DNA from: a virus
Reading direction: 5' to 3' (one strand)
IMG/VR virus record: IMGVR_UViG_3300037422_000051
DNA length: 64,000 nucleotides
The position numbers and the translations under genes are program-made. This document shows positions 2,148 through 43,021 of this stretch, piece by piece. The notes beneath the pieces are model-generated. The model was not told the DNA's origin. It saw nothing but the letters and a program-made list of their open reading frames with translations, and did no database searches. Position 1 is the stretch's first letter. Every line of letters begins with the position of its first letter.

Positions 2148-2417
2148 TCAATCCATGCCATGCGCCTTCTCCCACGCCGCGACGAAAGCGCGAATCGCCT
2201 CGCACTCGGCTTCAAGGTAGTCCACGCGATCGGCGAGGTTCACGTACCGCGTGGGCTGGAGTGCTGCGTTCGGAGCGAAGACCTCGAGCTTCTCGCGCGC
2301 GACGAGCTCGTAGCTCGGCCACTGGTCTTTTCCGCGACAGCTACTCGGCGCTGCCGCGGCCGGCGTCTGACAGGCGCTTTGCATCATCAGCCAGGTCGTA
2401 GCCGCGGCTGCTGTCAA
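2148..2417 (-). CDS. o-spanin (Rz1-like lipoprotein)
   Basis: TTG start at 2417 behind AGGAGG; MTAAAATTWLMMQSA-C lipobox-like; overlaps the 3' end of the i-spanin in another frame. Confidence 0.65.
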   Translation of the reverse strand: MTAAAATTWLMMQSACQTPAAAAPSSCRGKDQWPSYELVAREKLEVFAPNAALQPTRYVNLADRVDYLEAECEAIRAFVAAWEKAHGMD

Positions 2418-2577
2418 AAGCGGCCTCCTGAGCGCTCCTGGCCTGGATGCCTTTCCGAAGCTCACGGTTCTCCTCCTCGATCTCTCCCACGCGCTTGCGG
2501 CTGCGCGAGAAAGCCCACCAGCCCGATGCCGCCAGCAGCGTGAGCGCAGCAATGAGCGCGAGGGCCTCGCCGCCCAT
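2341..2577 (-). CDS. i-spanin (Rz-like)
   Basis: N-terminal TM helix followed by coiled coil; directly after holin. Confidence 0.65.
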   Translation of the reverse strand: MGGEALALIAALTLLAASGWWAFSRSRKRVGEIEEENRELRKGIQARSAQEAAFDSSRGYDLADDAKRLSDAGRGSAE

Positions 2578-2578
2578 C

Positions 2579-2758
2579 TTAGGCGCCGATCCCGGTCTTC
2601 GTCACCAGCCGCAGGATGACGTTGACCACGGCCAGCAGCCCCACCTGGGCCTCGGCATCGATGATCTCGCGCCCGGTGGCAGCCTGCGCGGCGATCGCCA
2701 GGGCGGCAATCACGTTGACCCACAGCGTCTTGCTCGTGTACCAGGATTTCGTTTCCAC
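2579..2758 (-). CDS. Holin (59 aa, two TM helices)
   Basis: GTG start behind GGAGG; 'KSWYTSKTLWVNVIAALA...AQVGLLAVVNVILRLVTK' is a typical small phage holin pattern; follows endolysin. Confidence 0.75.
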   Translation of the reverse strand: METKSWYTSKTLWVNVIAALAIAAQAATGREIIDAEAQVGLLAVVNVILRLVTKTGIGA

Positions 2759-2769
2759 GGCCTCGCCTC

Positions 2770-3216
2770 CTATTCCGGCCACCGATAGCCGAGCACGCGC
2801 TCGACTGGATAGGCCGCTTCGCACACCGAATCGCGCTGGTTGCCACCCAGCACCCGCACCCTCGAGCCCTCGTTCGCGAAGCCGAGGAAGAAGCCGACGT
2901 GCCCCGGCGCCTCGATCACCTCGGGCCCAGGCTGCGCGCCCGAGCCGCGCTGCAGCACCACCACGCAGCCGTAGGCCGGATGCCGCAGCAGAAGCCCCCA
3001 CCACAGCCACGCCCGCGCGCGCTTGCTGCCGGTCCCCTCGAGCCCCACCTGCTCGATGCACCAGTTGACGAAGCTCGAGCACCACGACACCTCGTCGGGT
3101 GCGGGCTTCCCATCGGTCGAAGCGTGGTATTCGACGACGCGCGGGTTGTCGGCCTCGCCGGAAGCCTCGAGCACGCCGACTTCCTTGAACGCGACTTCGA
3201 GCCAGGGCGGATTCAC
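2770..3216 (-). CDS. Endolysin, TIGR02594-family NlpC/P60-like peptidase
   Basis: 'PPWLEVA..EVG', 'WCSSFVNWC', 'GHVGF', 'VLGGNQ' motifs. Confidence 0.85.
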   Translation of the reverse strand: MNPPWLEVAFKEVGVLEASGEADNPRVVEYHASTDGKPAPDEVSWCSSFVNWCIEQVGLEGTGSKRARAWLWWGLLLRHPAYGCVVVLQRGSGAQPGPEVIEAPGHVGFFLGFANEGSRVRVLGGNQRDSVCEAAYPVERVLGYRWPE

Positions 3217-3557
3217 CGATCACGCCTCCGCTCTTCGAGCTGCGTCACCTTCGCGAGCAGCAGCGTGTTGCTCGTCGAGAGCCCCGCGAGCTGCGTCACG
3301 ATCCCATCAATCTTCACGGTAGCTTTGTCGATCAGGCCAGCGAGGTGCTTGCTCTGATTCATCTCGGCCTCCAGGTCGCGGACGCGCTCCTGAAGGTCAG
3401 CAATCTGCATCGTGCGCTCTTCGAGCGTCCGGTCCATGCGAATGAACTGCGCCCACGCGCCGCCAGCGGTGAGTAGCGCGCTTCCCAGCAAAGTGGATAG
3501 GACGCCGACGCCGACCTTGTACCAGAGGCTTCGCCCATCACTGCTCCCGTTCGCCAT
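3213..3557 (-). CDS. Membrane-anchored coiled-coil protein (lysis-region, holin/antiholin-like)
   Basis: Single N-terminal TM then heptad coiled coil. Confidence 0.6.
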   Translation of the reverse strand: MANGSSDGRSLWYKVGVGVLSTLLGSALLTAGGAWAQFIRMDRTLEERTMQIADLQERVRDLEAEMNQSKHLAGLIDKATVKIDGIVTQLAGLSTSNTLLLAKVTQLEERRRDR

Positions 3558-3915
3558 TCTCGATCACCTCAGGCTCTAGCTCGATCTTCAGCTCATTCGC
3601 AATCTTCTGCTGGCCCCGCTCAAAGCGAAGTGCACCTTTCGAGAGATTGGAAACGCTCTTGTCGAGCCGTTCGACGCTATGGAACAGCTCGCCAATAGAC
3701 GTTGAGTTTCTTTCGACCGTCACCTGCACGTCGTCTATCTTCGCCGCGATCATGCCGAGCTTCCCATCCCAGTAAGCGTTGGCCTCGTCCTCTAGACGCA
3801 TCACCTGTGGCTCATGCTTCACGAACTGGCCGTACAGGAACACACCGAATCCCGCGATCATCGCCAGCGCGAGAATCGAGATCGCAGAGTTCTCGACGGT
3901 CGCACGAAGGTTCAC
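3538..3915 (-). CDS. Membrane-anchored coiled-coil protein (125 aa)
   Basis: GTG start overlapping upstream TGA (GTGA); TM 'AISILALAMIAGFGVFLYG' then coiled coil. Confidence 0.6.
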   Translation of the reverse strand: MNLRATVENSAISILALAMIAGFGVFLYGQFVKHEPQVMRLEDEANAYWDGKLGMIAAKIDDVQVTVERNSTSIGELFHSVERLDKSVSNLSKGALRFERGQQKIANELKIELEPEVIENGEREQ

Positions 3916-6176
3916 CGAAGACTCACCGCCATCGGTCCCGGCGTCGGCTCTGCGATCAGCCGCAGCACCTTCGCGAGGACTCCGGTGGGCGGAGCCTCCT
4001 GGAATAGCTCGCCGACTTGGCAGCCGATTCGCTCGGTCGCGATCACGATGTTGTCGCGATACCACTCCATGTTGGCCTCTGGTGTGCTGTTGAGCAGCGT
4101 CTCGAAGGCAACGCTATTCAGCGCAAACTCCTGGTAGCTGCGCAGCATGTTCTGATTGCTGTTGCTCGCCTGGATCTCACCGTTGATCCAGTATTCCTCG
4201 ATGCCAGTGTCCTGGTTCCCACGAAACCCGGTCTGATTCAGCCTGTAGCGTGCCTCGACGCAGAGCCACTCGCTGTCTCCTCCGGGGGAGGCTGCTCGCG
4301 TGGCGAACATATCAGCCTCGGCGTGAGCACCGCTGGTCGGAGCGCCAACCTGGGTCATCCAGAACGCCGTATTCGTGTCGTTCCCCTTGTCGATCACAGT
4401 ATTCAACCCGTCAGTCGAGATACCATTGGTCGAGTTGAACTTGATCGAGCCGTCCAGAATGGCAGGATTGCCAGGCGTCGGGTCGAGCCAGAAGTGCCCC
4501 TGATAAGCTGTTGGATGCACGTTCTGGTCGCCAACCATTGGAGGCGATAGGGCGCGCACCCGCATAAACTTCATACCCGCCGGGGGATTCGTCCAGCCTC
4601 CCTTCACCTTGATGAACTGGCGAACGTACAGCTCGGTGTACTTCACGTCTGGATCGCCGACGTGGAAGGGGTGCTGATACTGGACGGCATTCCCAGTACC
4701 CGGCGCAGCGTAGGCTCCGCCGTCTGGCATCTCGTTTCCGACCGGGACGTAAGTTCCGGTTGCGTCTGTATACCAGTGCGGAACCTTACCGATGAGTATA
4801 GAGAAGTTACCGGCGCTCTTGCTTCCGCCAGTCGTGAACCTGGCTCTCATCGCAGTCGATCCGTTTATGCCAACCCCAGCAATCGGCAGGTAGTCCGCAG
4901 TGGCTCCGCCCGGGTTGTAGTCGTTCCACTTGTCTTGAACGGGACGGCCATCATCGAAGTTGTCGCACTTGAGATAGGCTGGGTTTGGAGTGTTAGACCC
5001 GGGGCAGCCGGCGTCCTCTCCAACGCCCGGTCCAGGCGTTGGTGTAGGCATTGCGGTTGGGGTGGGTGGTGTTACAGGCGTCGAGGTTGGAACAGATGTA
5101 GGCATGGCGGTGGGTGTCGCTGTGGCTGTTGGAGTAGCGGTTGGAGTTGGAGTTGGCTGTCCTGGGAATTGCTCTTCAGACGCTCTACCTATCCAGTAAT
5201 TCGGGTCGGCTGGATTCTTGATTGTAGATATAACATAGCTGAACCACGTTACTCCTTTTGTTCTATCGCACCCAGCTCCAGAACAGGTGCCGAAAACCGT
5301 AGTTGCAATTTGCGTTCCGTTATCTCTACCAGCGGCTTCTATCGATGTTACTGGATTCTGAAAATAACCAGGGCCAAAATACTGGATTTGACCTGCCTTT
5401 GGCCCGGTTATCATAGTCAGGCGCACCCTTGCATAGACGTAGTTCGGAGATGGCCCGTTCCAAGAAGTGCTATACTCAGCCGTGATCGGATGGTCGTATG
5501 TATTGATCGGATTATGGTCAGCACAGAACTCCCACATGACCCATCCGTTCTTAAAATCTCCAAACTTTAGATCGCTCCCGCCATCTTGATTTCTAACTAG
5601 ACGGTTTCCTGGCATAGATGGTGCAGTGCCAATGCCAACCTGCGGGCTCCAGTACCCAGGAGCAAACTGAATGTAATCTGGGTTGTAATCCCAGAAACTT
5701 TCAAGCCCAAGATGTGGTCCGCCAACTTCTTTCTCTTCGTATCGAGGCCCCTTAACATTAAAATTTGTTCCTGAAGGGAACGACCAGCCAGACCCGTACT
5801 TAACGTAGAATCGTGAACAGTACGTCTTGTTCGTGAAGTCTCGTGTTTCCGAATCGCCATCGCGTAGCTGGAAGGTGCCATTGTTAACTTGCAAGACGTA
5901 TCCGCTACCACCAACCGTAAGCCCCTGTGATGCTCCAGTGACCCACTGTGCATCGATGCTAGAGAGATACGAGATAGATATTCCGCCATTACATCCAGGA
6001 GAAGAGGTCGGATTAAACGTCTGATTTGAGAAACTTCCGTCGTTTGCTGAAAGCGGCTCACTGCATACACATGTTACCCCGCTACCAGGACTATCGCATA
6101 GCAATTCGCTTGCGTTACCAGCTCCGAACGCCGGGGCAGCCAAGAGAAGGATCGCCAGTGTAGCTAATCTACGCAT
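3912..6176 (-). CDS. Secreted two-domain ConA/polysaccharide-lyase-like protein with Pro-Thr linker (754 aa)
   Basis: Signal peptide MRRLATLAILLLAAPAFG; two aromatic beta-sandwich-like domains ('YCSRFYVKY', 'LYVRQFIKV', 'WLCVE', 'DNIVIAT..IG') joined by a PT repeat; 12 Cys. Confidence 0.7.
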   Translation of the reverse strand: MRRLATLAILLLAAPAFGAGNASELLCDSPGSGVTCVCSEPLSANDGSFSNQTFNPTSSPGCNGGISISYLSSIDAQWVTGASQGLTVGGSGYVLQVNNGTFQLRDGDSETRDFTNKTYCSRFYVKYGSGWSFPSGTNFNVKGPRYEEKEVGGPHLGLESFWDYNPDYIQFAPGYWSPQVGIGTAPSMPGNRLVRNQDGGSDLKFGDFKNGWVMWEFCADHNPINTYDHPITAEYSTSWNGPSPNYVYARVRLTMITGPKAGQIQYFGPGYFQNPVTSIEAAGRDNGTQIATTVFGTCSGAGCDRTKGVTWFSYVISTIKNPADPNYWIGRASEEQFPGQPTPTPTATPTATATPTAMPTSVPTSTPVTPPTPTAMPTPTPGPGVGEDAGCPGSNTPNPAYLKCDNFDDGRPVQDKWNDYNPGGATADYLPIAGVGINGSTAMRARFTTGGSKSAGNFSILIGKVPHWYTDATGTYVPVGNEMPDGGAYAAPGTGNAVQYQHPFHVGDPDVKYTELYVRQFIKVKGGWTNPPAGMKFMRVRALSPPMVGDQNVHPTAYQGHFWLDPTPGNPAILDGSIKFNSTNGISTDGLNTVIDKGNDTNTAFWMTQVGAPTSGAHAEADMFATRAASPGGDSEWLCVEARYRLNQTGFRGNQDTGIEEYWINGEIQASNSNQNMLRSYQEFALNSVAFETLLNSTPEANMEWYRDNIVIATERIGCQVGELFQEAPPTGVLAKVLRLIAEPTPGPMAVSLR
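5030..5159 (-). repeat. Pro-Thr low-complexity linker
   Basis: Encodes QPTPTPTATPTATATPTAMPTSVPTSTPVTPPTPTAMPTPTPGP. Confidence 0.9.
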
Positions 6177-6982
6177 GATCCACCAATAAAGTTGTCAAGG
6201 ACTTCAAAATCTGTTGTCGTAGCCGTTGAGCCGAAGCGCACGAGGGTGCCAGTAAATAAACCGTCGTCTGTTATGTCGCTACCGCTTAGCGTTCCCGTTG
6301 CATCCGCGCATGTAATTCCCAAATCACCAGTCGTGCCAGCATCATTGATGCAACAATCTGGAGCTCCCCAGGTATCGGGGTCGCCGGTAAGCGCTGACGC
6401 GCCAGTGCGGGCCCAGAAGTTAATTTCGGTGTCTGTTCCTGTACCGCGCACATAAACACAGATCTGGTCATCTGTGATTTCGCTAATGGTTCTGGATATT
6501 GTGCAAGTTCCAAGGTCGCTCGTGTTGTCTGCGTCGCGCCAAAAGCAGGCATTACTGCCCTCGCTGCAATAACCGAAATACATATCTCCGGTGCCAGTTT
6601 GCGTGTCAATGCGGAGCGGGACACCGAACTGTGAAGATTGAAGCCCGCCACTGTCAACCATTTGGAGGCAACCGAACTGGTTGATGGTCGCGGTTGCAGT
6701 TGCGTGACCAAGCGTATAACGCTTGTTGTCGCAGTTCGGGTCGAGGTCGTGGTCGAGGCGGAGCTGGTTGTTGTTGGATGAATCAATGGTCCACGGGCAA
6801 TTGGTTTGGTCTACGTTAAGCCCGCCGATCCACGTCGAGCCATAAGTATCGGTAGCAAAGTCGTCGGACATTCCCTGGGTGCATGTGTCAGGCGCTCCAG
6901 TATTGGTGACGGCCGTATGGACCAGGCCAAAGCCAGTTAGCAGCGGGAACAGCGCGAGTAGAACTAGAACGAGACGACGCAT
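6164..6982 (-). CDS. Secreted Cys-rich beta-sandwich (lectin-like) protein (272 aa)
   Basis: Signal-peptide-like MRRLVLVLLALFPLLTG; 12 Cys; Asp/Thr/Gly-rich. Confidence 0.7.
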   Translation of the reverse strand: MRRLVLVLLALFPLLTGFGLVHTAVTNTGAPDTCTQGMSDDFATDTYGSTWIGGLNVDQTNCPWTIDSSNNNQLRLDHDLDPNCDNKRYTLGHATATATINQFGCLQMVDSGGLQSSQFGVPLRIDTQTGTGDMYFGYCSEGSNACFWRDADNTSDLGTCTISRTISEITDDQICVYVRGTGTDTEINFWARTGASALTGDPDTWGAPDCCINDAGTTGDLGITCADATGTLSGSDITDDGLFTGTLVRFGSTATTTDFEVLDNFIGGSCVD

Positions 6983-9333
6983 CAGTTAACGTCACTCCAT
7001 GTGCCGCGATACCCGATCGGGAACCAGTTGGTTGCGTCGAGGGCTACGAGCGTGATGATCGAGCCCACCGTTGCGTCGCTGGAGATCGCGTCTCCCGTGG
7101 CATTGGTGAGAACGAGAATCTGATCGCCAGTATTCGCGTTCACGTCCACGTCGAAGGCGGCGGCTACGCAAACAGTGACTGTCATTCCCGCCACAGCCGA
7201 CGGCAGGTCGTAGACGGCTGAACCAGACGCGCCAGTGTTGCAGATCAGTGTGGACTTGGTCTCATTAGCAGTGATGGTGTGAGGCGTACCGGATTGAGTC
7301 TTCGTTAGAACCTCGGTGTAGGCTCTGAAGTTCCCACCGCTGAAGTCCCAACTTTCACCGGCTACGTCGAGATCTGCATTCTGGATGGTTCCATCTAGCA
7401 ACATGGTTCCGGTAACGGTGCCGCTGTCGCCCGTGTCGATCAGCGTCCCGGTTCCGGCTGCCATCGTGATCGCGGCGGTCGTGTCCGGAATGGTCAGCGA
7501 GGAAACCGTTGTAGGGTCAGCGGGTAGATTTAGCGTCCACTGAGAAGCGTTGGACGTTGTGCCCTCCCACAAGAGCCCAACCGTGCCAGTGGACACAACC
7601 CCGTCTGTCCAAGCGGCCCCGGAGGCGTAACCAGCTCCCACATCGGTGATGTCACCGGAGCCGCCAGCACCGGGGCCGATGTCTACGGCCGCAGCTCCAT
7701 CACCAATCCACAAGTGATTCGCGTCTTCTTCCCAACACACCTGGCCCTCTGCCGTAGCCGAGGCGCATGAGGTTGCGTGGGACGGAAGCATGATGCCTTC
7801 CGTGGCCGAAGAGATGAACGTTCCAAAGTCGAGAAGGTCTCCGTCATCAAACACCAGAGATGTCGCAAGCATGTTCTCAACAACTTTTGCTGCACCGATT
7901 GTGGTTGCGCCTGTGCTCGCGATCGTTACATCGCCACTCATCGTCTTGTTTTGCCAGTCAGTGGTTTGGTAAATCAGGAGGTCTCCAGACTGCACACCCG
8001 AGATCGTAGTTTGAACAGCGTCTTTGCATTCCCAAGCTGTGTCGCCGGAGTTTCGCTGAATGATGTCTAGTGCGCCGCAGGTTCCAATCGAGCCAAAGTC
8101 GGAGAGGGCATTGATATAGCCGGCTGGGAGACGGGCCGCGTCGAGTTCGCCGGATGTGATGTCCTCTGCCTCGTGAGTCTGGCCTGGGTGCGCTAGAGCG
8201 GTTAGGGCTTCGTGAGCGTCCAACTCGCTCTGCGTAGCAAGATCTGGACCCGGTACGATGACCTCATCGGAAACCGCAAAGAAGTCCTCCGAAAAGCCGC
8301 GAACGTACAGGTTGCCACCAGCGGGAGGCGTTGCTCCGATGATTGAGACGAAGGTCACGCCAATCGTCGGCTCATCCGCGAGCTGCCCGGCGCCGCCGCT
8401 GCCAATCGTGATCGGAGCGCCGGTTGACGCTTCGCAGAACTCATACTTGTTGTCTGTCGAGTCCCACCACCAAGACCCAGCCGTCGAACAGGCATCCGAA
8501 TTCAACCCGATGTTGTTGGTATGACGGCCGAGTTCAGAGATTTGATAGACCGTCATGTCTGCGCCATCCGTAACTCGGAAGAGATTGCTCGGTCCATCGT
8601 TGTTTGCGTCGATCTTGACAATAAAGTCGTCATTCGCACGGAAGGTTGGAGCCTGCACGGCTTGGTTCAGAGTGAGCGTCCCGGAAGTCGTCAAGCTCCA
8701 CCCGGAAGCGCTTTGCGTGGAGGTAAATGCGTTGGACCCCCAGCCTGCAAGACACTGGTCCTCTGGATCCTTGGTGTTGTCTCCATTGACGTCCGAGTAG
8801 TAGCCGTAAGAACAAGTCGCAGAGGCAATCGGTCGCAAATCCGGCGTTGTGGTTTGCTCGAGCGCCGTTGCCGAGCTGCCACCCACGCCTGACGGGTAAT
8901 CGACGATCCAGTCGGTTCCGTTGTACGTCGCATTCTGAAGATCAGCGCAGGAGAACTCGAGCGTTCCGCCCGAGCCCAGCGTGTTCACGCGGACGAGCGG
9001 GAAGCCTCGCGTGATGCTGACCGGAGCCGCGACGACGCCACCATCTCGAAGCGTCAGGATCTCCGTGCAACTCGATCGCGTCGAGTCTGAAGCCGGGCAG
9101 TCGTAGATCGTGGTCGTTGCACCCGCTGCGTCGAGCACCGCGGTCGTAATAACATCGCGGCATCCGGTCAGATCCTGGTGCGGAGCTGCGGAGTCTCCAG
9201 CCGCCGCGAACGTGTACGTGAACGCCTGGTCGAAAAGCGCCTGGAGCTTCGGCGTTGCGGTTCCGACATCCCATTGCGCGGAAGCCGAAAGCGGCGCGAA
9301 GAGCAGCGCGAGGAGAATTGCGTAGCGTCTCAT
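6982..9333 (-). CDS. Tail-fibre-like protein with N-terminal Sec signal peptide (783 aa)
   Basis: MRRYAILLALLFAPLSASA|Q (A-X-A site); fibre-type segments ('SGDVTIASTGATTIGAAKV', 'GQVCWEEDANHLWIGDG', C-terminal 'YDLPSAVAG...ITLVALDATNW..GTW'); 14 Cys mostly in close pairs. Confidence 0.75.
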   Translation of the reverse strand: MRRYAILLALLFAPLSASAQWDVGTATPKLQALFDQAFTYTFAAAGDSAAPHQDLTGCRDVITTAVLDAAGATTTIYDCPASDSTRSSCTEILTLRDGGVVAAPVSITRGFPLVRVNTLGSGGTLEFSCADLQNATYNGTDWIVDYPSGVGGSSATALEQTTTPDLRPIASATCSYGYYSDVNGDNTKDPEDQCLAGWGSNAFTSTQSASGWSLTTSGTLTLNQAVQAPTFRANDDFIVKIDANNDGPSNLFRVTDGADMTVYQISELGRHTNNIGLNSDACSTAGSWWWDSTDNKYEFCEASTGAPITIGSGGAGQLADEPTIGVTFVSIIGATPPAGGNLYVRGFSEDFFAVSDEVIVPGPDLATQSELDAHEALTALAHPGQTHEAEDITSGELDAARLPAGYINALSDFGSIGTCGALDIIQRNSGDTAWECKDAVQTTISGVQSGDLLIYQTTDWQNKTMSGDVTIASTGATTIGAAKVVENMLATSLVFDDGDLLDFGTFISSATEGIMLPSHATSCASATAEGQVCWEEDANHLWIGDGAAAVDIGPGAGGSGDITDVGAGYASGAAWTDGVVSTGTVGLLWEGTTSNASQWTLNLPADPTTVSSLTIPDTTAAITMAAGTGTLIDTGDSGTVTGTMLLDGTIQNADLDVAGESWDFSGGNFRAYTEVLTKTQSGTPHTITANETKSTLICNTGASGSAVYDLPSAVAGMTVTVCVAAAFDVDVNANTGDQILVLTNATGDAISSDATVGSIITLVALDATNWFPIGYRGTWSDVN

Positions 9334-10343
9334 GGAATGACTCCTGTGTAGACCAAGTATCCGATCACGGTTGAAGGCGGTCTGTTTTCGTGCGCCGTTC
9401 CGCTGCCGACGCTCGCGTGCGTGTGCGCGCCATCCGAAGTCACGGGCGAATCGACTACGACGAAGCCCGCATCACCGCGCCGAAGCGTCGAATCCTGGCT
9501 CCCGACATTCGGCGACACGTTGAGGTCGTGCGTGTGCGCCCCCGCTGAGCCGTGATCGTGCGCAGCGAGCTCGGCAGTCGTAAGCGCGTGCTTCTTCTCG
9601 CCGAGGAACGTGTCACCCTGGACGCCGCCATCGGCCGCGAAGTTGTTGTAATCGCCGTCGGCATCGCCGCCCGCCCAGTTCCCGACCGGGACGCGGCCGC
9701 GCAGATCGGGAACGCGGAAGCTTCCGGCCGAAGGCGCTCCGAGCAAAGGGTGCGCGTCGTAGACGCCATCGCCGAAGCCGGTCGCGCCGTAGAGCGCAGC
9801 CAGCGCCGGGTAAGTCGCTACGGCATAGGCCGTGCCGTCGCAGACCTTCCAGCCGTTGATTGCAGCGGCAGACGCGCGCCCGCTCGTGAGCCGCAGATCG
9901 CCGACCGCCGGGAGGCTCACGAAGGCCGACAGGTCGAGCGTCTTCGCGAAGTAGATCTCGACATTCGAGAGCGTCGCGGGGACATTCGAGCCGAGAATCG
10001 TGACGACGGTATCCGATCCAGAGAAGTTCGCCGACGCAACGTGCGCCTCGGCCGTCGCTGCGCCTGACATGCGGATCCGGCGACCCACGTTGAAGTAGAC
10101 CGCGGCATTGCATCCCACGATGCGGAACGTGCTCACGTTGTCGCGCGTGATCGTCTTGGCGCCAATTGGCGTCACGTCATTGAGCACCGAGAGCCACTCG
10201 GGGTCGTCGTACCAGGTGCGAACCGTGGCCATCGTCTGCCGGCCCCAGTTATTCACGTCTTTCCCGGTCCAGTTGTCGGGCGCGCCGTTCGGGACCGCCG
10301 CGTTGTTGCTGCCAGGCGTTTTCGACCAGTCGGAGAGCGCCAT
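9330..10343 (-). CDS. Tail fibre protein with phage tail-collar domain
   Basis: 'VGDLRL...GWKVCDG.AY....YPAL...FRVPDLRGRVPVG' collar motif; His-repeat C-terminus (HDH/HTH). Confidence 0.85.
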   Translation of the reverse strand: MALSDWSKTPGSNNAAVPNGAPDNWTGKDVNNWGRQTMATVRTWYDDPEWLSVLNDVTPIGAKTITRDNVSTFRIVGCNAAVYFNVGRRIRMSGAATAEAHVASANFSGSDTVVTILGSNVPATLSNVEIYFAKTLDLSAFVSLPAVGDLRLTSGRASAAAINGWKVCDGTAYAVATYPALAALYGATGFGDGVYDAHPLLGAPSAGSFRVPDLRGRVPVGNWAGGDADGDYNNFAADGGVQGDTFLGEKKHALTTAELAAHDHGSAGAHTHDLNVSPNVGSQDSTLRRGDAGFVVVDSPVTSDGAHTHASVGSGTAHENRPPSTVIGYLVYTGVIP

Positions 10344-40876: not shown

Positions 40877-41215
40877 TTATGCCACATCAAATCCACTTCG
40901 GGTTATTGCTTCGACCGGGAGCTCCCAATAGGCATCACGTCCTGCACCATCCTGCAGTGTCACCAAGATCGTATAGCTTTCACCAGAAACAAATGGAATC
41001 GATGCAGGAATCAGAGCTCGGAATTCACCGCGCGAGCCAGCCTGGTAGACAAAATCAATCGGGAAGGTACCCGCCAGTGGATCCCCCCCAACATCTTCGA
41101 TAGCGGGAATCTGGAAAGTATTTACGTTCTCGTCGAGGTATGAAGCTCCAATCTTCACCTTGTAGAAAATGAGTTCGGTTGAATTGCCAGGATAGATTTT
41201 GAAATTAGTTGCCAT
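40877..41215 (-). CDS. Ig-like beta-sandwich structural-type protein (112 aa)
   Basis: GAGGAGG RBS; alternating beta-strand pattern; last of the post-lysis module. Confidence 0.6.
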   Translation of the reverse strand: MATNFKIYPGNSTELIFYKVKIGASYLDENVNTFQIPAIEDVGGDPLAGTFPIDFVYQAGSRGEFRALIPASIPFVSGESYTILVTLQDGAGRDAYWELPVEAITRSGFDVA

Positions 41216-41224
41216 GTAACCTCC

Positions 41225-43021
41225 TCATCTTCGTCGTCTCCGGTGCCGTGGAGTAGGGAATACACCTTCTTCAAGAAGTGTATTTTCCCCGAGTTGGGTT
41301 AAAGTTGTGCGAACAATCGGATGCGAAGCGATATTCACGCATTGACCGGCAGGAGCAGTCGCTCCCCAAGCAACCTCAACGAGTCCAATAACGTGGATGT
41401 CCTCTCCGTCGCCAGCTAATTCTAGGTCAAAAAGGCTTGGACGTTTACAGCTTTGCCGAAAAGCCGTAAAGGGTATGAACAGATTGTTTGTTGCCGGGGC
41501 GTACAGGATCTCAGAATCTTCCCGTAGCGGGATGGGAAGTTGATAAGCCAGGAGTGGAGTTTCAAGAGCTTCGACGTCAGATCTAGAGGGAATTGATGTG
41601 AGGAGCGAAAGCGCTGGTTCAAGCAGAGTTTCGCTTACATCAAGCGCACTCAGCATTGTGTTATAATTCAATGCGGGAGATTGATTCTCTTCGCTGAAAG
41701 AAGATTCCGGGATCGCAAGCAAGAGCTGCAAAAGCGGATCGTGAAGAACCTCTGCTTCAACAAGAGTTTCAACCGCATGATGAAGAGAGAGAGAGGGCTC
41801 CAGGCTGGCTTGCGTTGCCTCGAGTAGCGGTATTTGCTGCCCGGTGTCGATGCTGGGTTCATGTAGCGTCTCGGCATAGTCCAGAGCCGCAACGGCATGC
41901 TGGAATTGCGACGCTGGAGTTTCGACTGTCTCAGTTAACGACAGCGCGTCGATGTTGCTGTAGTAGATCGCGGTCGGCGCATTGAGCGTTTCGCTTTCGG
42001 AGAGAGCCCCAACAGCATGGTCATACCGAAGGCTGAGAACGGCGAGAGTCTCTGTGTCTGCGCGCGCTCCGACCGGATGATTGAGGGCTAGAGTCGGAGT
42101 CTGTAAAGCCTCGGTCGCGGAGAGGAGCGGGATCGCCTGCACCTCTGGAACTGTGGGCGCGAATAAAGTTTCCGAAGTCGAGAGCGCGCCGATCAGATAC
42201 CAGTATTGACCCAACGGAGCCTGGAGGGTCTCTGTATCGCTACGCAGTCCGATCGCGTGATCGTACCGAGCCGTTATGGCCTGTAGGGTCTCGGTCTCTG
42301 ACGCAACGCCGATCTGGTGGTTGTACTTGAGCGTCGGAGCTTGGAGGGTTTCTGCGTCGGAGCGAAGTGGTATCGCCTGCGGACTTCTAACGTCGAGTTC
42401 AATCGCATGGGAGGCGTAGACTGTGCCCTGCGTCGCCCCGAAGGTGCAGGTTGCCGTGGTGTTCCCGGTCGCGAGGTAACAGACCTCGCACGCGGTGGTC
42501 GGCGTAGACTGGCTCGCGTCCTGGGCTTCGGTCCAACCCGAGACCGGGGTCGTGGTCGTGTCGCCGCTCATCACGGCGGCGATCGACATGTTCGTGGTGA
42601 GCGGGGTCTGGTTGAGAACGGGGGCTGGCGTCGAGCCCGAGGCTTGGTTGGCCTGGCTACCACTGCTGCGAATGGCCGCAGAGCCAACCTGCGTCATGCC
42701 AGTGATGGCGAGAACGATCAGCTCGCCTGCGGTGTTGGAGCCAGATGTGCAGGTTATAACTGTTGATGTCGAGTTGACCATCAACGCGTCGCGGACGAAA
42801 ACGGCCGAGTTGTCAGCCGAGGCGTTCCATAGGGCTTGACCGATACGGGTATAGGTGCCCGACCCGTTGTTGTCGGTCATGGTGGGCGTGCTGCTCGTAT
42901 TGCCAGAAAGGGAAACGAAGACGACTAGAAGGTCGCCCGAGGCGGGTGTAATGGTGACAGTCCGGTTACCTGTACCGGACGTACCACCACCCGCGACGCT
43001 GGTTCTAACAGCGGCGGACAA
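41225..43021 (-). CDS. Putative virion appendage protein: beta-rich N-domain plus about 15 x 20-aa repeats (598 aa)
   Basis: Repeat consensus I(P/G)xLSxxETLxxPxLxYxHx; basic C-terminus RHRRRR. Confidence 0.75.
   Translation of the reverse strand: MSAAVRTSVAGGGTSGTGNRTVTITPASGDLLVVFVSLSGNTSSTPTMTDNNGSGTYTRIGQALWNASADNSAVFVRDALMVNSTSTVITCTSGSNTAGELIVLAITGMTQVGSAAIRSSGSQANQASGSTPAPVLNQTPLTTNMSIAAVMSGDTTTTPVSGWTEAQDASQSTPTTACEVCYLATGNTTATCTFGATQGTVYASHAIELDVRSPQAIPLRSDAETLQAPTLKYNHQIGVASETETLQAITARYDHAIGLRSDTETLQAPLGQYWYLIGALSTSETLFAPTVPEVQAIPLLSATEALQTPTLALNHPVGARADTETLAVLSLRYDHAVGALSESETLNAPTAIYYSNIDALSLTETVETPASQFQHAVAALDYAETLHEPSIDTGQQIPLLEATQASLEPSLSLHHAVETLVEAEVLHDPLLQLLLAIPESSFSEENQSPALNYNTMLSALDVSETLLEPALSLLTSIPSRSDVEALETPLLAYQLPIPLREDSEILYAPATNNLFIPFTAFRQSCKRPSLFDLELAGDGEDIHVIGLVEVAWGATAPAGQCVNIASHPIVRTTLTQLGENTLLEEGVFPTPRHRRRRR
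41490..42373 (-). repeat. Degenerate 60-nt (20-aa) coding repeats, about 15 units
   Basis: IPLRSDAETLQAPTLKYNHQ / IGVASETETLQAITARYDHA / IGLRSDTETLQAPLGQYWYL ... Confidence 0.85.

Follow-up and report, generated by a model that had tools for sequence, protein, structure and literature searches.

Are all parts of a tailed-phage particle made in one compartment of the host cell? The usual view is that such particles form entirely within the reducing cytoplasm, and the tail operon of an uncultured phage raises the question of whether that holds for every fibre. The stretch of DNA analysed here (the window, which is the whole 64,000 nucleotides of IMG/VR virus record IMGVR_UViG_3300037422_000051) carries three consecutive genes whose products, P0001, P0002 and P0003 (together the triad), have signal-peptide-like leaders and many cysteines. 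We propose, with a probability of roughly one in three, that in this lineage and by extension in many uncultured phages the distal fibres may be exported by the Sec pathway, oxidised in the periplasm and added to particles after holin opening, which would amount to a two-compartment route of assembly.

Three coupled genes for proteins with leaders and paired cysteines

The triad is placed on the minus strand between a Collar-domain tail fibre gene and the lysis genes, as follows (aa, amino acids; ORF, open reading frame):

9330..10343, minus strand: ordinary tail fibre, 337 aa, 2 cysteines, no signal peptide (Pfam Collar, E=7.6e-9, and PHROG tail families)
6982..9333, minus strand: P0001, 783 aa, 14 cysteines, predicted exported fibre-like protein (ORF, leader, relatives and cysteine analysis)
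6164..6982, minus strand: P0002, 272 aa, 12 cysteines, predicted exported or membrane-anchored ConA/LamG-like jelly roll
3912..6176, minus strand: P0003, 754 aa, 12 cysteines, predicted exported protein of two domains

The start of P0001 overlaps the stop of the collar fibre gene by 4 nucleotides (9330-9333), the P0002 gene overlaps that of P0001 by 1 and the P0003 gene overlaps that of P0002 by 13, and neither a promoter-like nor a convincing terminator-like site was seen to interrupt the block. These overlaps confirm an earlier note on this DNA, made from its letters and ORFs, which had described three consecutive, translationally coupled genes of 783, 272 and 754 aa between the collar fibre and the lysis genes.

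All three products begin with MRR, followed by a hydrophobic core of 12-15 residues and a (-3,-1) site that reads ASA↓QW in P0001, LTG↓F in P0002 (the weaker site among the three) and AFG↓A in P0003, the arrow marking the predicted cut:

9277..9333, minus strand: predicted signal peptide of P0001, aa 1-19, cleavage at ASA↓QW, conserved in the family defined by its N-terminal domain
6932-6982, minus strand: leader of P0002, aa 1-17, possibly a longer anchor reaching aa 25
6123-6176, minus strand: predicted signal peptide of P0003, aa 1-18, kept in its homologues P0004 and P0005

The signal-peptide calls combine four criteria (hydrophobicity, charge, the -3/-1 rule and persistence among homologues) and were made by rule and not by a trained predictor. 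In a hydrophobicity scan of 35 ORFs, only the triad showed a peak above 2.3 within the first 25 residues, and only there was a charged N-terminus combined with strongly hydrophobic first 25 residues. The leader is present in 7/7 proteins that have the N-terminal domain of P0001 (the N-module, described below), namely those of the window, five relatives and the L020 locus; six of these have an A-x-A↓QW junction and the seventh, P0088, has ASG↓W. The same leader type, with the junction ...P-A-(F/W)-G-(A/S)↓G-D-A..., is found in P0004 and P0005 (31-32% identity to P0003), and the P0002 homologue P0009 (54% identity) keeps its leader too. Among homologues the leader sequences drift while the signal-like feature stays. 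The earlier note had read signal-peptide-like N-termini on all three proteins, and both the rule-based check and the conservation bear this out, every homologue having kept its hydrophobic leader.

Four other readings of these N-termini were rejected. The twin arginine of the window's three proteins is represented in homologues by RW, KW, KK, RH, R or KR, and the consensus of the twin-arginine translocation (Tat) signal (S/T-R-R-x-F-L-K) is missing; with the arginine pair not kept, Sec is a better fit than Tat. A lipoprotein signal (signal peptidase II) would need a lipobox cysteine, which none of the three has at its predicted mature N-terminus, and leader-less isoforms from in-frame internal starts lack a credible start or Shine-Dalgarno site. 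Database calls start P0002 at Met38; since P0009 keeps the leader and has no Met at that position, the long start is the correct one. The public calls at Met38 drop the leader (6871-6982), and calls of this kind would hide phage signal peptides in database-wide surveys.

Two further observations concern the leaders. Predicted cleavage exposes Gln-Trp in 6/7 N-module proteins (8884-9276 in the window), which is reminiscent of the Bacteroidetes "Q rule" that Matrishin et al. 2023 (PMC10367356) cite, despite a genomic guanine-plus-cytosine (GC) content of 63%. That study describes Porphyromonas phage genes with Sec signal peptides, some of which expose an N-terminal Gln after cleavage, as the A↓QW junction of the N-module family also would; the genes concerned are of unknown function or encode capsid proteins or spanins, and the study names no tail fibres and does not analyse cysteines. 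Over its first 30 residues (6893-6982), P0002 is 57% identical to the leader of an otherwise unrelated 426-aa protein at locus L011 (14482-14571), which there comes after a tip domain homologous to that of P0001, and DNA similarity with the window ends at the gene junction; a conserved leader is here joined to unrelated mature parts.

The cysteines tell a concordant story. Triad proteins hold 14, 12 and 12 of them against 0-2 in the neighbouring tail proteins, and at nine related loci leader-bearing proteins contain 2.2% cysteine against 0.58% in their neighbours. The even counts and the mostly close pairs in the 783-aa protein, already remarked upon in the earlier note, hold up: six of the seven sequential pairs of P0001 lie at most 25 residues apart (P ~0.006 against random placement), and the mature count is even in each of the 11 proteins made up of the triad and its direct homologues. 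With P0001 as query, an exhaustive HMMER search returned 1017 relatives, and parity was tested on the best 150 of these, 109 of which look leader-bearing; the N-termini depend on automated gene prediction, and some of the "leader-less" sequences are fragments. Within this sample, leader-bearing relatives with at least 6 cysteines have even counts in 44 cases and odd counts in 6 (p=1.6e-8), and the leader-less ones are divided 18 even to 17 odd.

Cysteines are also gained and lost together. The extra pair C139/C146 of P0002 is replaced as a pair in P0009, and the extra cysteines of P0004 and P0005 arrive in twos and fours. Among 94 units of a repeat that forms the shaft of P0001 and of related proteins (46 proteins in all), two cysteines ten residues apart in sequence (nine between) are both present in 82 units and both absent in 12, and no unit has a single one. 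This pair follows the leader, as 71 units with it and 3 without it belong to leader-bearing proteins, and 4 with it and 9 without it to leader-less ones. Export with oxidative folding is the only simple reading of these sequence patterns and in our view a highly likely one, such that the triad very probably folds outside the cytoplasm in which the rest of the virus is built; the export and disulfide bonding proposed earlier thus gain the support of conserved leaders, even counts, paired gain and loss, and the co-variation of pair and leader. The link between cysteine pair and signal peptide serves as an easily read sequence marker in large-scale searches for such proteins.

One leader-less protein that carries the same fibre repeats, P0020 (L019 10001-17290; 2429 aa), is nearly cysteine-free, has V/S or V/A at both cysteine positions in all six of its repeat units, and bears a Peptidase_S74 domain. 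Its surroundings are cellular and not those of a phage (TonB receptor, M16 peptidase, trypsin-like protease).

A core fibre-like gene and its companions

P0001 consists, in order, of the leader, the N-module, a middle region, fibre repeats and a tip domain, three of which can be delimited:

8884..9276, minus strand: N-module, aa 20-150, predicted jelly-roll beta-sandwich with four invariant cysteines (58, 79, 89, 129), from alignment and an AlphaFold2 (AF2) model
7636..7881, minus strand: shaft repeat unit, aa 485-566, cysteine pair C523/C533, one of the 94 units in 46 proteins
6985..7368, minus strand: C-terminal tip domain, aa 656-783 (128 aa), with C698 and C722, 75% identical to the tip at L011

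A gene for leader plus N-module lies directly 3' of the collar fibre homologue at 5/5 loci, that is, in the window and at L010, L007, L009 and L020, the last of which was located independently, and hence without bias, via a 596-aa tail protein (a metagenome scan for this tail protein gave no match). In these relatives the N-terminal ~116 aa of the collar fibre are conserved, and the distal parts of the N-module proteins vary in sequence and in length, from 452 to 1324 aa. Genes like those of P0002 and P0003 are absent from L020 and L007, where a holin-like gene comes directly next. By GC content, the N-module (63%) is near the genome value; distal P0001 has 58%, P0002 54% and the N-domain of P0003 49%, and the lysis genes are back at 65%. 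The fixed position, the varied distal parts, the absences and the GC gradient together mark P0001 as resident and core, with a distal part open to exchange, and P0002 and P0003 as cargo acquired behind it. Leader and N-domain of P0003 (5157-6176; 49% GC, GC at third codon positions (GC3) 0.45) are the most foreign piece of the block.

Exchange also reaches across phage types. Locus L010, which is syntenic with the window, encodes the Pfam families SU10_MCP and SU10_adaptor, and the window is therefore read as a short-tailed phage (podophage) with SU10-like tail genes; in L011, a lambda-like siphophage, a leader-bearing protein of 1493 aa ends in a sequence with 75% identity to the tip of P0001. 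The same tip domain forms the C-terminus of more than 100 clusters among the matches listed, and its Atlas model resembles viral fibre-tip clusters. The fibre repeats occur in very large leader-bearing, cysteine-rich proteins as well, and the first 150 residues of P0001 are common to 5 of the best 150 of its 1017 relatives. Searches of P0001 against Pfam, PHROG, NCBIfam and PDB sequences found no match to any curated family, a word-based homologue search with it and searches of PDB by sequence likewise found none, and the N-module had no match in IMG/VR or in GTDB genomes. What ties P0001 to tail fibres are the repeats that it has in common with the S74-bearing P0020 and its structural neighbours in Atlas.

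The N-module model has a predicted local distance difference test (pLDDT) score of 76; within the core (aa 31-140) most of the chain scores 85-96 and two blocks 78-79. Fold searches in PDB, BFVD, AFDB and Atlas gave only generic jelly-roll matches: the best, SPbeta YomS (Z 8.0) and PBSX XepA (Z 7.1), are borderline, at a level that the tool calls common, and the others (a phage cement protein and viral turret proteins) are generic.

For P0002, the Atlas model (predicted template modelling score, pTM, 0.80) has template modelling (TM) scores of 0.60-0.70 to LamG_3, GH16-like and viral DUF7257 clusters, and a search against Pfam gave no match; at the level of fold only, the model makes it a ConA/LamG-type jelly roll. 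It has no similarity to the proteins in second position at L001 (281 aa) and L015 (275 aa). P0003 is divided as follows:

5157-6122, minus strand: N-domain, GC 49%
~5022-5156, minus strand: Pro/Thr linker
~4002-5021, minus strand: C-domain, putatively polysaccharide-lyase-like (language-model clusters and the sub-threshold match of P0006)

Phage depolymerases are usually beta-helix tailspikes on the particle, and P0003 would be of another kind. The language-model clusters nearest to it in Atlas are those of heparin lyase I and PL14 (score 0.92), and P0006, a homologue of one of its domains, matches PF21294 with E=2.5e-5 and 24.6 bits, below the cut-off of 27. A secreted layout with a Pro/Thr linker is shared with such lyases (PF21294 / PF14099), but P0003 has no Pfam match of its own. 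Profile searches of PDB with both domains gave no match, nor did the comparison of the two domains with each other show a detectable relation (hhalign probability 0.3%) or that of P0003 with a 686-aa protein of L011 any similarity. The initial description of the block as fibre plus lectins was thus roughly right: repeats and tip common to more than 1000 proteins support it for P0001 and the ConA/LamG-like model for P0002, while P0003 looks lyase-like, and that through weak, transitive evidence.

Where the probably exported proteins would act

The gene layout and the paired cysteines, the conserved leaders and the core status and mosaicism of P0001 are each either directly seen or strongly supported, and the question is what becomes of the proteins after export. 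In the route that we propose, the three genes would be expressed late, co-transcribed and translationally coupled with the tail genes, and their products would cross the inner membrane by Sec, be cut by signal peptidase I and be stabilised by disulfides outside the cytoplasm. P0001 would be the lineage's conserved second receptor-binding fibre, with a constant N-module that docks and a swappable shaft and tip that bind the host surface, and P0002 and P0003 would be lower-GC accessory additions acquired behind it. Once the holin has opened the inner membrane, or else at lysis, the periplasmic fibre would come together with cytoplasm-built particles and dock; P0003 would act mainly as a free polysaccharide-degrading enzyme released at lysis. 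The timing would depend on the lysis cassette:

2341..3876, minus strand: lysis cassette, comprising
~3538-3876, minus strand: transmembrane and coiled-coil protein
3213-3557, minus strand: transmembrane and coiled-coil protein
2770-3216, minus strand: soluble TIGR02594 endolysin (E=1.1e-36)
within 2579-2770, minus strand: small holin-like ORF with two transmembrane segments
2341-2577, minus strand: i-spanin-like ORF with transmembrane segment and coiled coil

As the endolysin has no N-terminal hydrophobic segment, a holin should be needed to release it, and the soluble enzyme would point to a canonical holin.

Docking of P0001 on virions is a possibility to which we give somewhat less than even odds. 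It is favoured by the constant N-module at a fixed spot beside the fibre gene, joined to a swappable distal part; by the exchange of the tip domain between phage types; and by the soluble endolysin, as such an enzyme calls for a holin that forms holes, through which cytoplasmic particles would come into contact with periplasmic fibres just before lysis. Podophages with branched or dual receptor-binding proteins (the T7 gp17 N-domain; G7C gp63.1/gp66; the SP6/K1-5 and KP32-type adaptors) share with P0001 a conserved N-terminal anchor, exchangeable distal modules and a second binder right after the first at the end of the tail module; unlike P0001, these proteins have no signal peptide, are cysteine-poor and are assembled in the cytoplasm. 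The receptor-binding pIII of filamentous phages (Ff) undergoes Sec export, cleavage and periplasmic disulfide bonding ahead of its incorporation into the virion, but the Ff virion assembles whole at the membrane, whereas here heads and tails would be built in the cytoplasm by a phage with terminase and portal.

Two other systems come close in architecture or position. The mosaic adhesive trimer (MAT) fibres of Bdellovibrio bacteriovorus combine a signal peptide, a conserved N-domain and a variable fibre (Caulton et al. 2024, PMC10769870). They have the same architecture as P0001, and both are related to phage tail fibres; MAT fibres, however, are encoded by the predatory cell and displayed on its surface, whereas P0001 is a core gene of a phage tail operon. 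The likeness is at the level of architecture only; P0001 has no S74 domain, and searches of AFDB clusters and PDB folds with the N-module gave no MAT match. In PBSX, the late protein XepA, whose gene lies between those for tail fibre and holin, is exported and is absent from particles (Freitag-Pohl et al. 2019, PMC6834076). The jelly-roll sandwich of XepA and of SPbeta YomS is the best fold neighbour of the N-module (Z 7.1-8.0, borderline and with no sequence similarity), but these are small pentamers of phages with a Gram-positive host and have no fibre part; the available portion of the XepA report describes neither a signal peptide nor disulfides for it (PMC6834076).

Our search of the literature found no description of Sec-exported fibres in tailed phages. 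The earlier statement that no characterised pathway resembles this one therefore stands in so far as none of the nearest cases concerns tailed-phage fibres, and needs qualifying in the light of XepA, MAT fibres and pIII.

Several points weigh against addition of a periplasmic fibre to the particle. We know of no tailed phage that adds periplasm-matured fibres, an ordinary leader-less fibre is already present so that P0001 is not needed on the particle, and dilution at lysis would make docking inefficient. The matches of the N-module to known folds are all at Z <=8, the AF2 model of P0003 (from 3 sequences) has a pLDDT of 29, and the lyase identity of P0003, resting on a sub-threshold match of a homologue and on language-model neighbours, is a lead and not a finding. 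The signal calls of the triad are predictions by rule and conservation, and the hydrophobic stretch of P0002 may be a membrane anchor instead of a cleaved signal. By analogy, XepA sets the precedent of an exported late protein encoded at this position that stays off the particles (PMC6834076), and in MAT fibres a signal peptide, a constant N-domain and a variable tip suit anchoring at a cell surface equally well (PMC10769870).

The most serious alternative, tentative but a real contender, is that all three proteins are exported and never enter the particle, being late exo-proteins that wait in the periplasm to be freed at lysis or that aid lysis and escape. Such a kit would be receptor-destroying or matrix-clearing, acting on the exopolysaccharide or receptors of mother-cell debris and of neighbouring cells, and the N-module would serve oligomerisation or envelope binding and not virion docking. 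With a Pro/Thr linker, two domains of jelly-roll type and neighbours that are lyase-like, P0003 resembles a host-style secreted carbohydrate-active enzyme; the relatives L020 and L007 do without P0002 and P0003; the phage already has a normal fibre without signal peptide; and XepA, together with YomS the best fold neighbour of the N-module, is just such an exported late protein between tail and lysis genes. Set against this, an N-module gene fixed beside the fibre gene at 5/5 loci, with a swappable distal part, is how receptor-binding proteins anchored on virions are classically built, the tip has been exchanged between podophage and siphophage as host-range determinants are, and in a diderm host Sec export alone does not reach the cell surface.

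An improbable alternative is that the triad is lysogenic-conversion cargo (morons), encoding adhesins or enzymes that remodel biofilm or matrix, like lambda lom/bor or Gifsy sodC at the same genome position. The interval between tail fibre and lysis genes is a known moron hot spot, the GC break (49-58% against 63% in the genome) would suit such cargo, and signal peptides fit envelope proteins; but the genes have no promoter or terminator of their own and are tied by overlapping starts to late expression of the tail operon, the scan of ORFs turned up no integrase, and the N-module gene is core in relatives and not sporadic. That the N-termini do not drive export at all, the proteins instead folding and joining particles in the cytoplasm, their N-terminus being hidden or cut off by a different protease and their cysteines oxidising only after release or binding metal, is very improbable: cytoplasmic assembly is the textbook route for tail fibres, and some virion disulfides are reported to form after release (siphovirus tail-tube crosslinks, for example; PMC13576161), but divergent homologues keep a positive n-region, an h-region and small residues at -3/-1, the cysteine pairs track the leader within one repeat family, and cysteine parity appears only in leader-bearing relatives.

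Should a conserved core fibre of this sort really be exported and disulfide-bonded, one of two consequences would follow: host-recognition parts are able to mature in a separate compartment and are added late, or else many environmental phages spend resources on a secreted kit of fibre and enzyme outside the particle. Either outcome changes the annotation of tail-fibre loci in uncultured phages and the prediction of host range, and bears on the production of these fibres for research or engineering, which would call for periplasmic expression and Dsb.

Genome setting and similar blocks elsewhere

Bases 1-22387 of the window are 100% identical to 41614-64000, and the window is therefore a wrapped circular genome of 41,613 bp. 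At 83,346 bp, one database contig bearing P0002 is roughly double the genome in length and may be a concatemeric assembly. The window encodes a portal protein (phrog_1216, E=3e-122), a large terminase, two "virion structural" PHROGs, a helicase, a primase-polymerase and an SNF2 helicase. Searches of GenBank phages by DNA and by protein gave no match, with no nucleotide match to the window; relatives of the portal among GenBank phages reach at most 36% identity. The DNA of the window is present in one freshwater metagenome, and the spanin-like ORF and the endolysin family point to a diderm host. After the lysis genes (40877-43021 and 1431-1874) come proteins of 598, 147 and 112 aa that have no leader and no family match.

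Blocks of several leader-bearing, cysteine-rich proteins at the junction of tail-fibre and lysis genes recur in unrelated phages (L011, L001, L004 and L017). At L011, three exported-type proteins lie between a J-like gene and the holin and endolysin genes; two were flagged by the rule, and the third has a leader resembling that of P0002. Similar blocks are seen at two loci whose setting may be phage or cellular: L015, and L014 (278-8271), where a triad of leader-bearing proteins of 2100, 275 and >1300 aa lies directly downstream of genes for a glycosyltransferase, an epimerase and a methyltransferase. A different position is occupied at L022 (10001-13453 of a circular 61-kb phage contig), where a leader-bearing relative of 1150 aa with 40 cysteines is found right after the head genes (portal DUF4055, Mu F-like and a capsid-sized ORF) and not at the end of the tail module.

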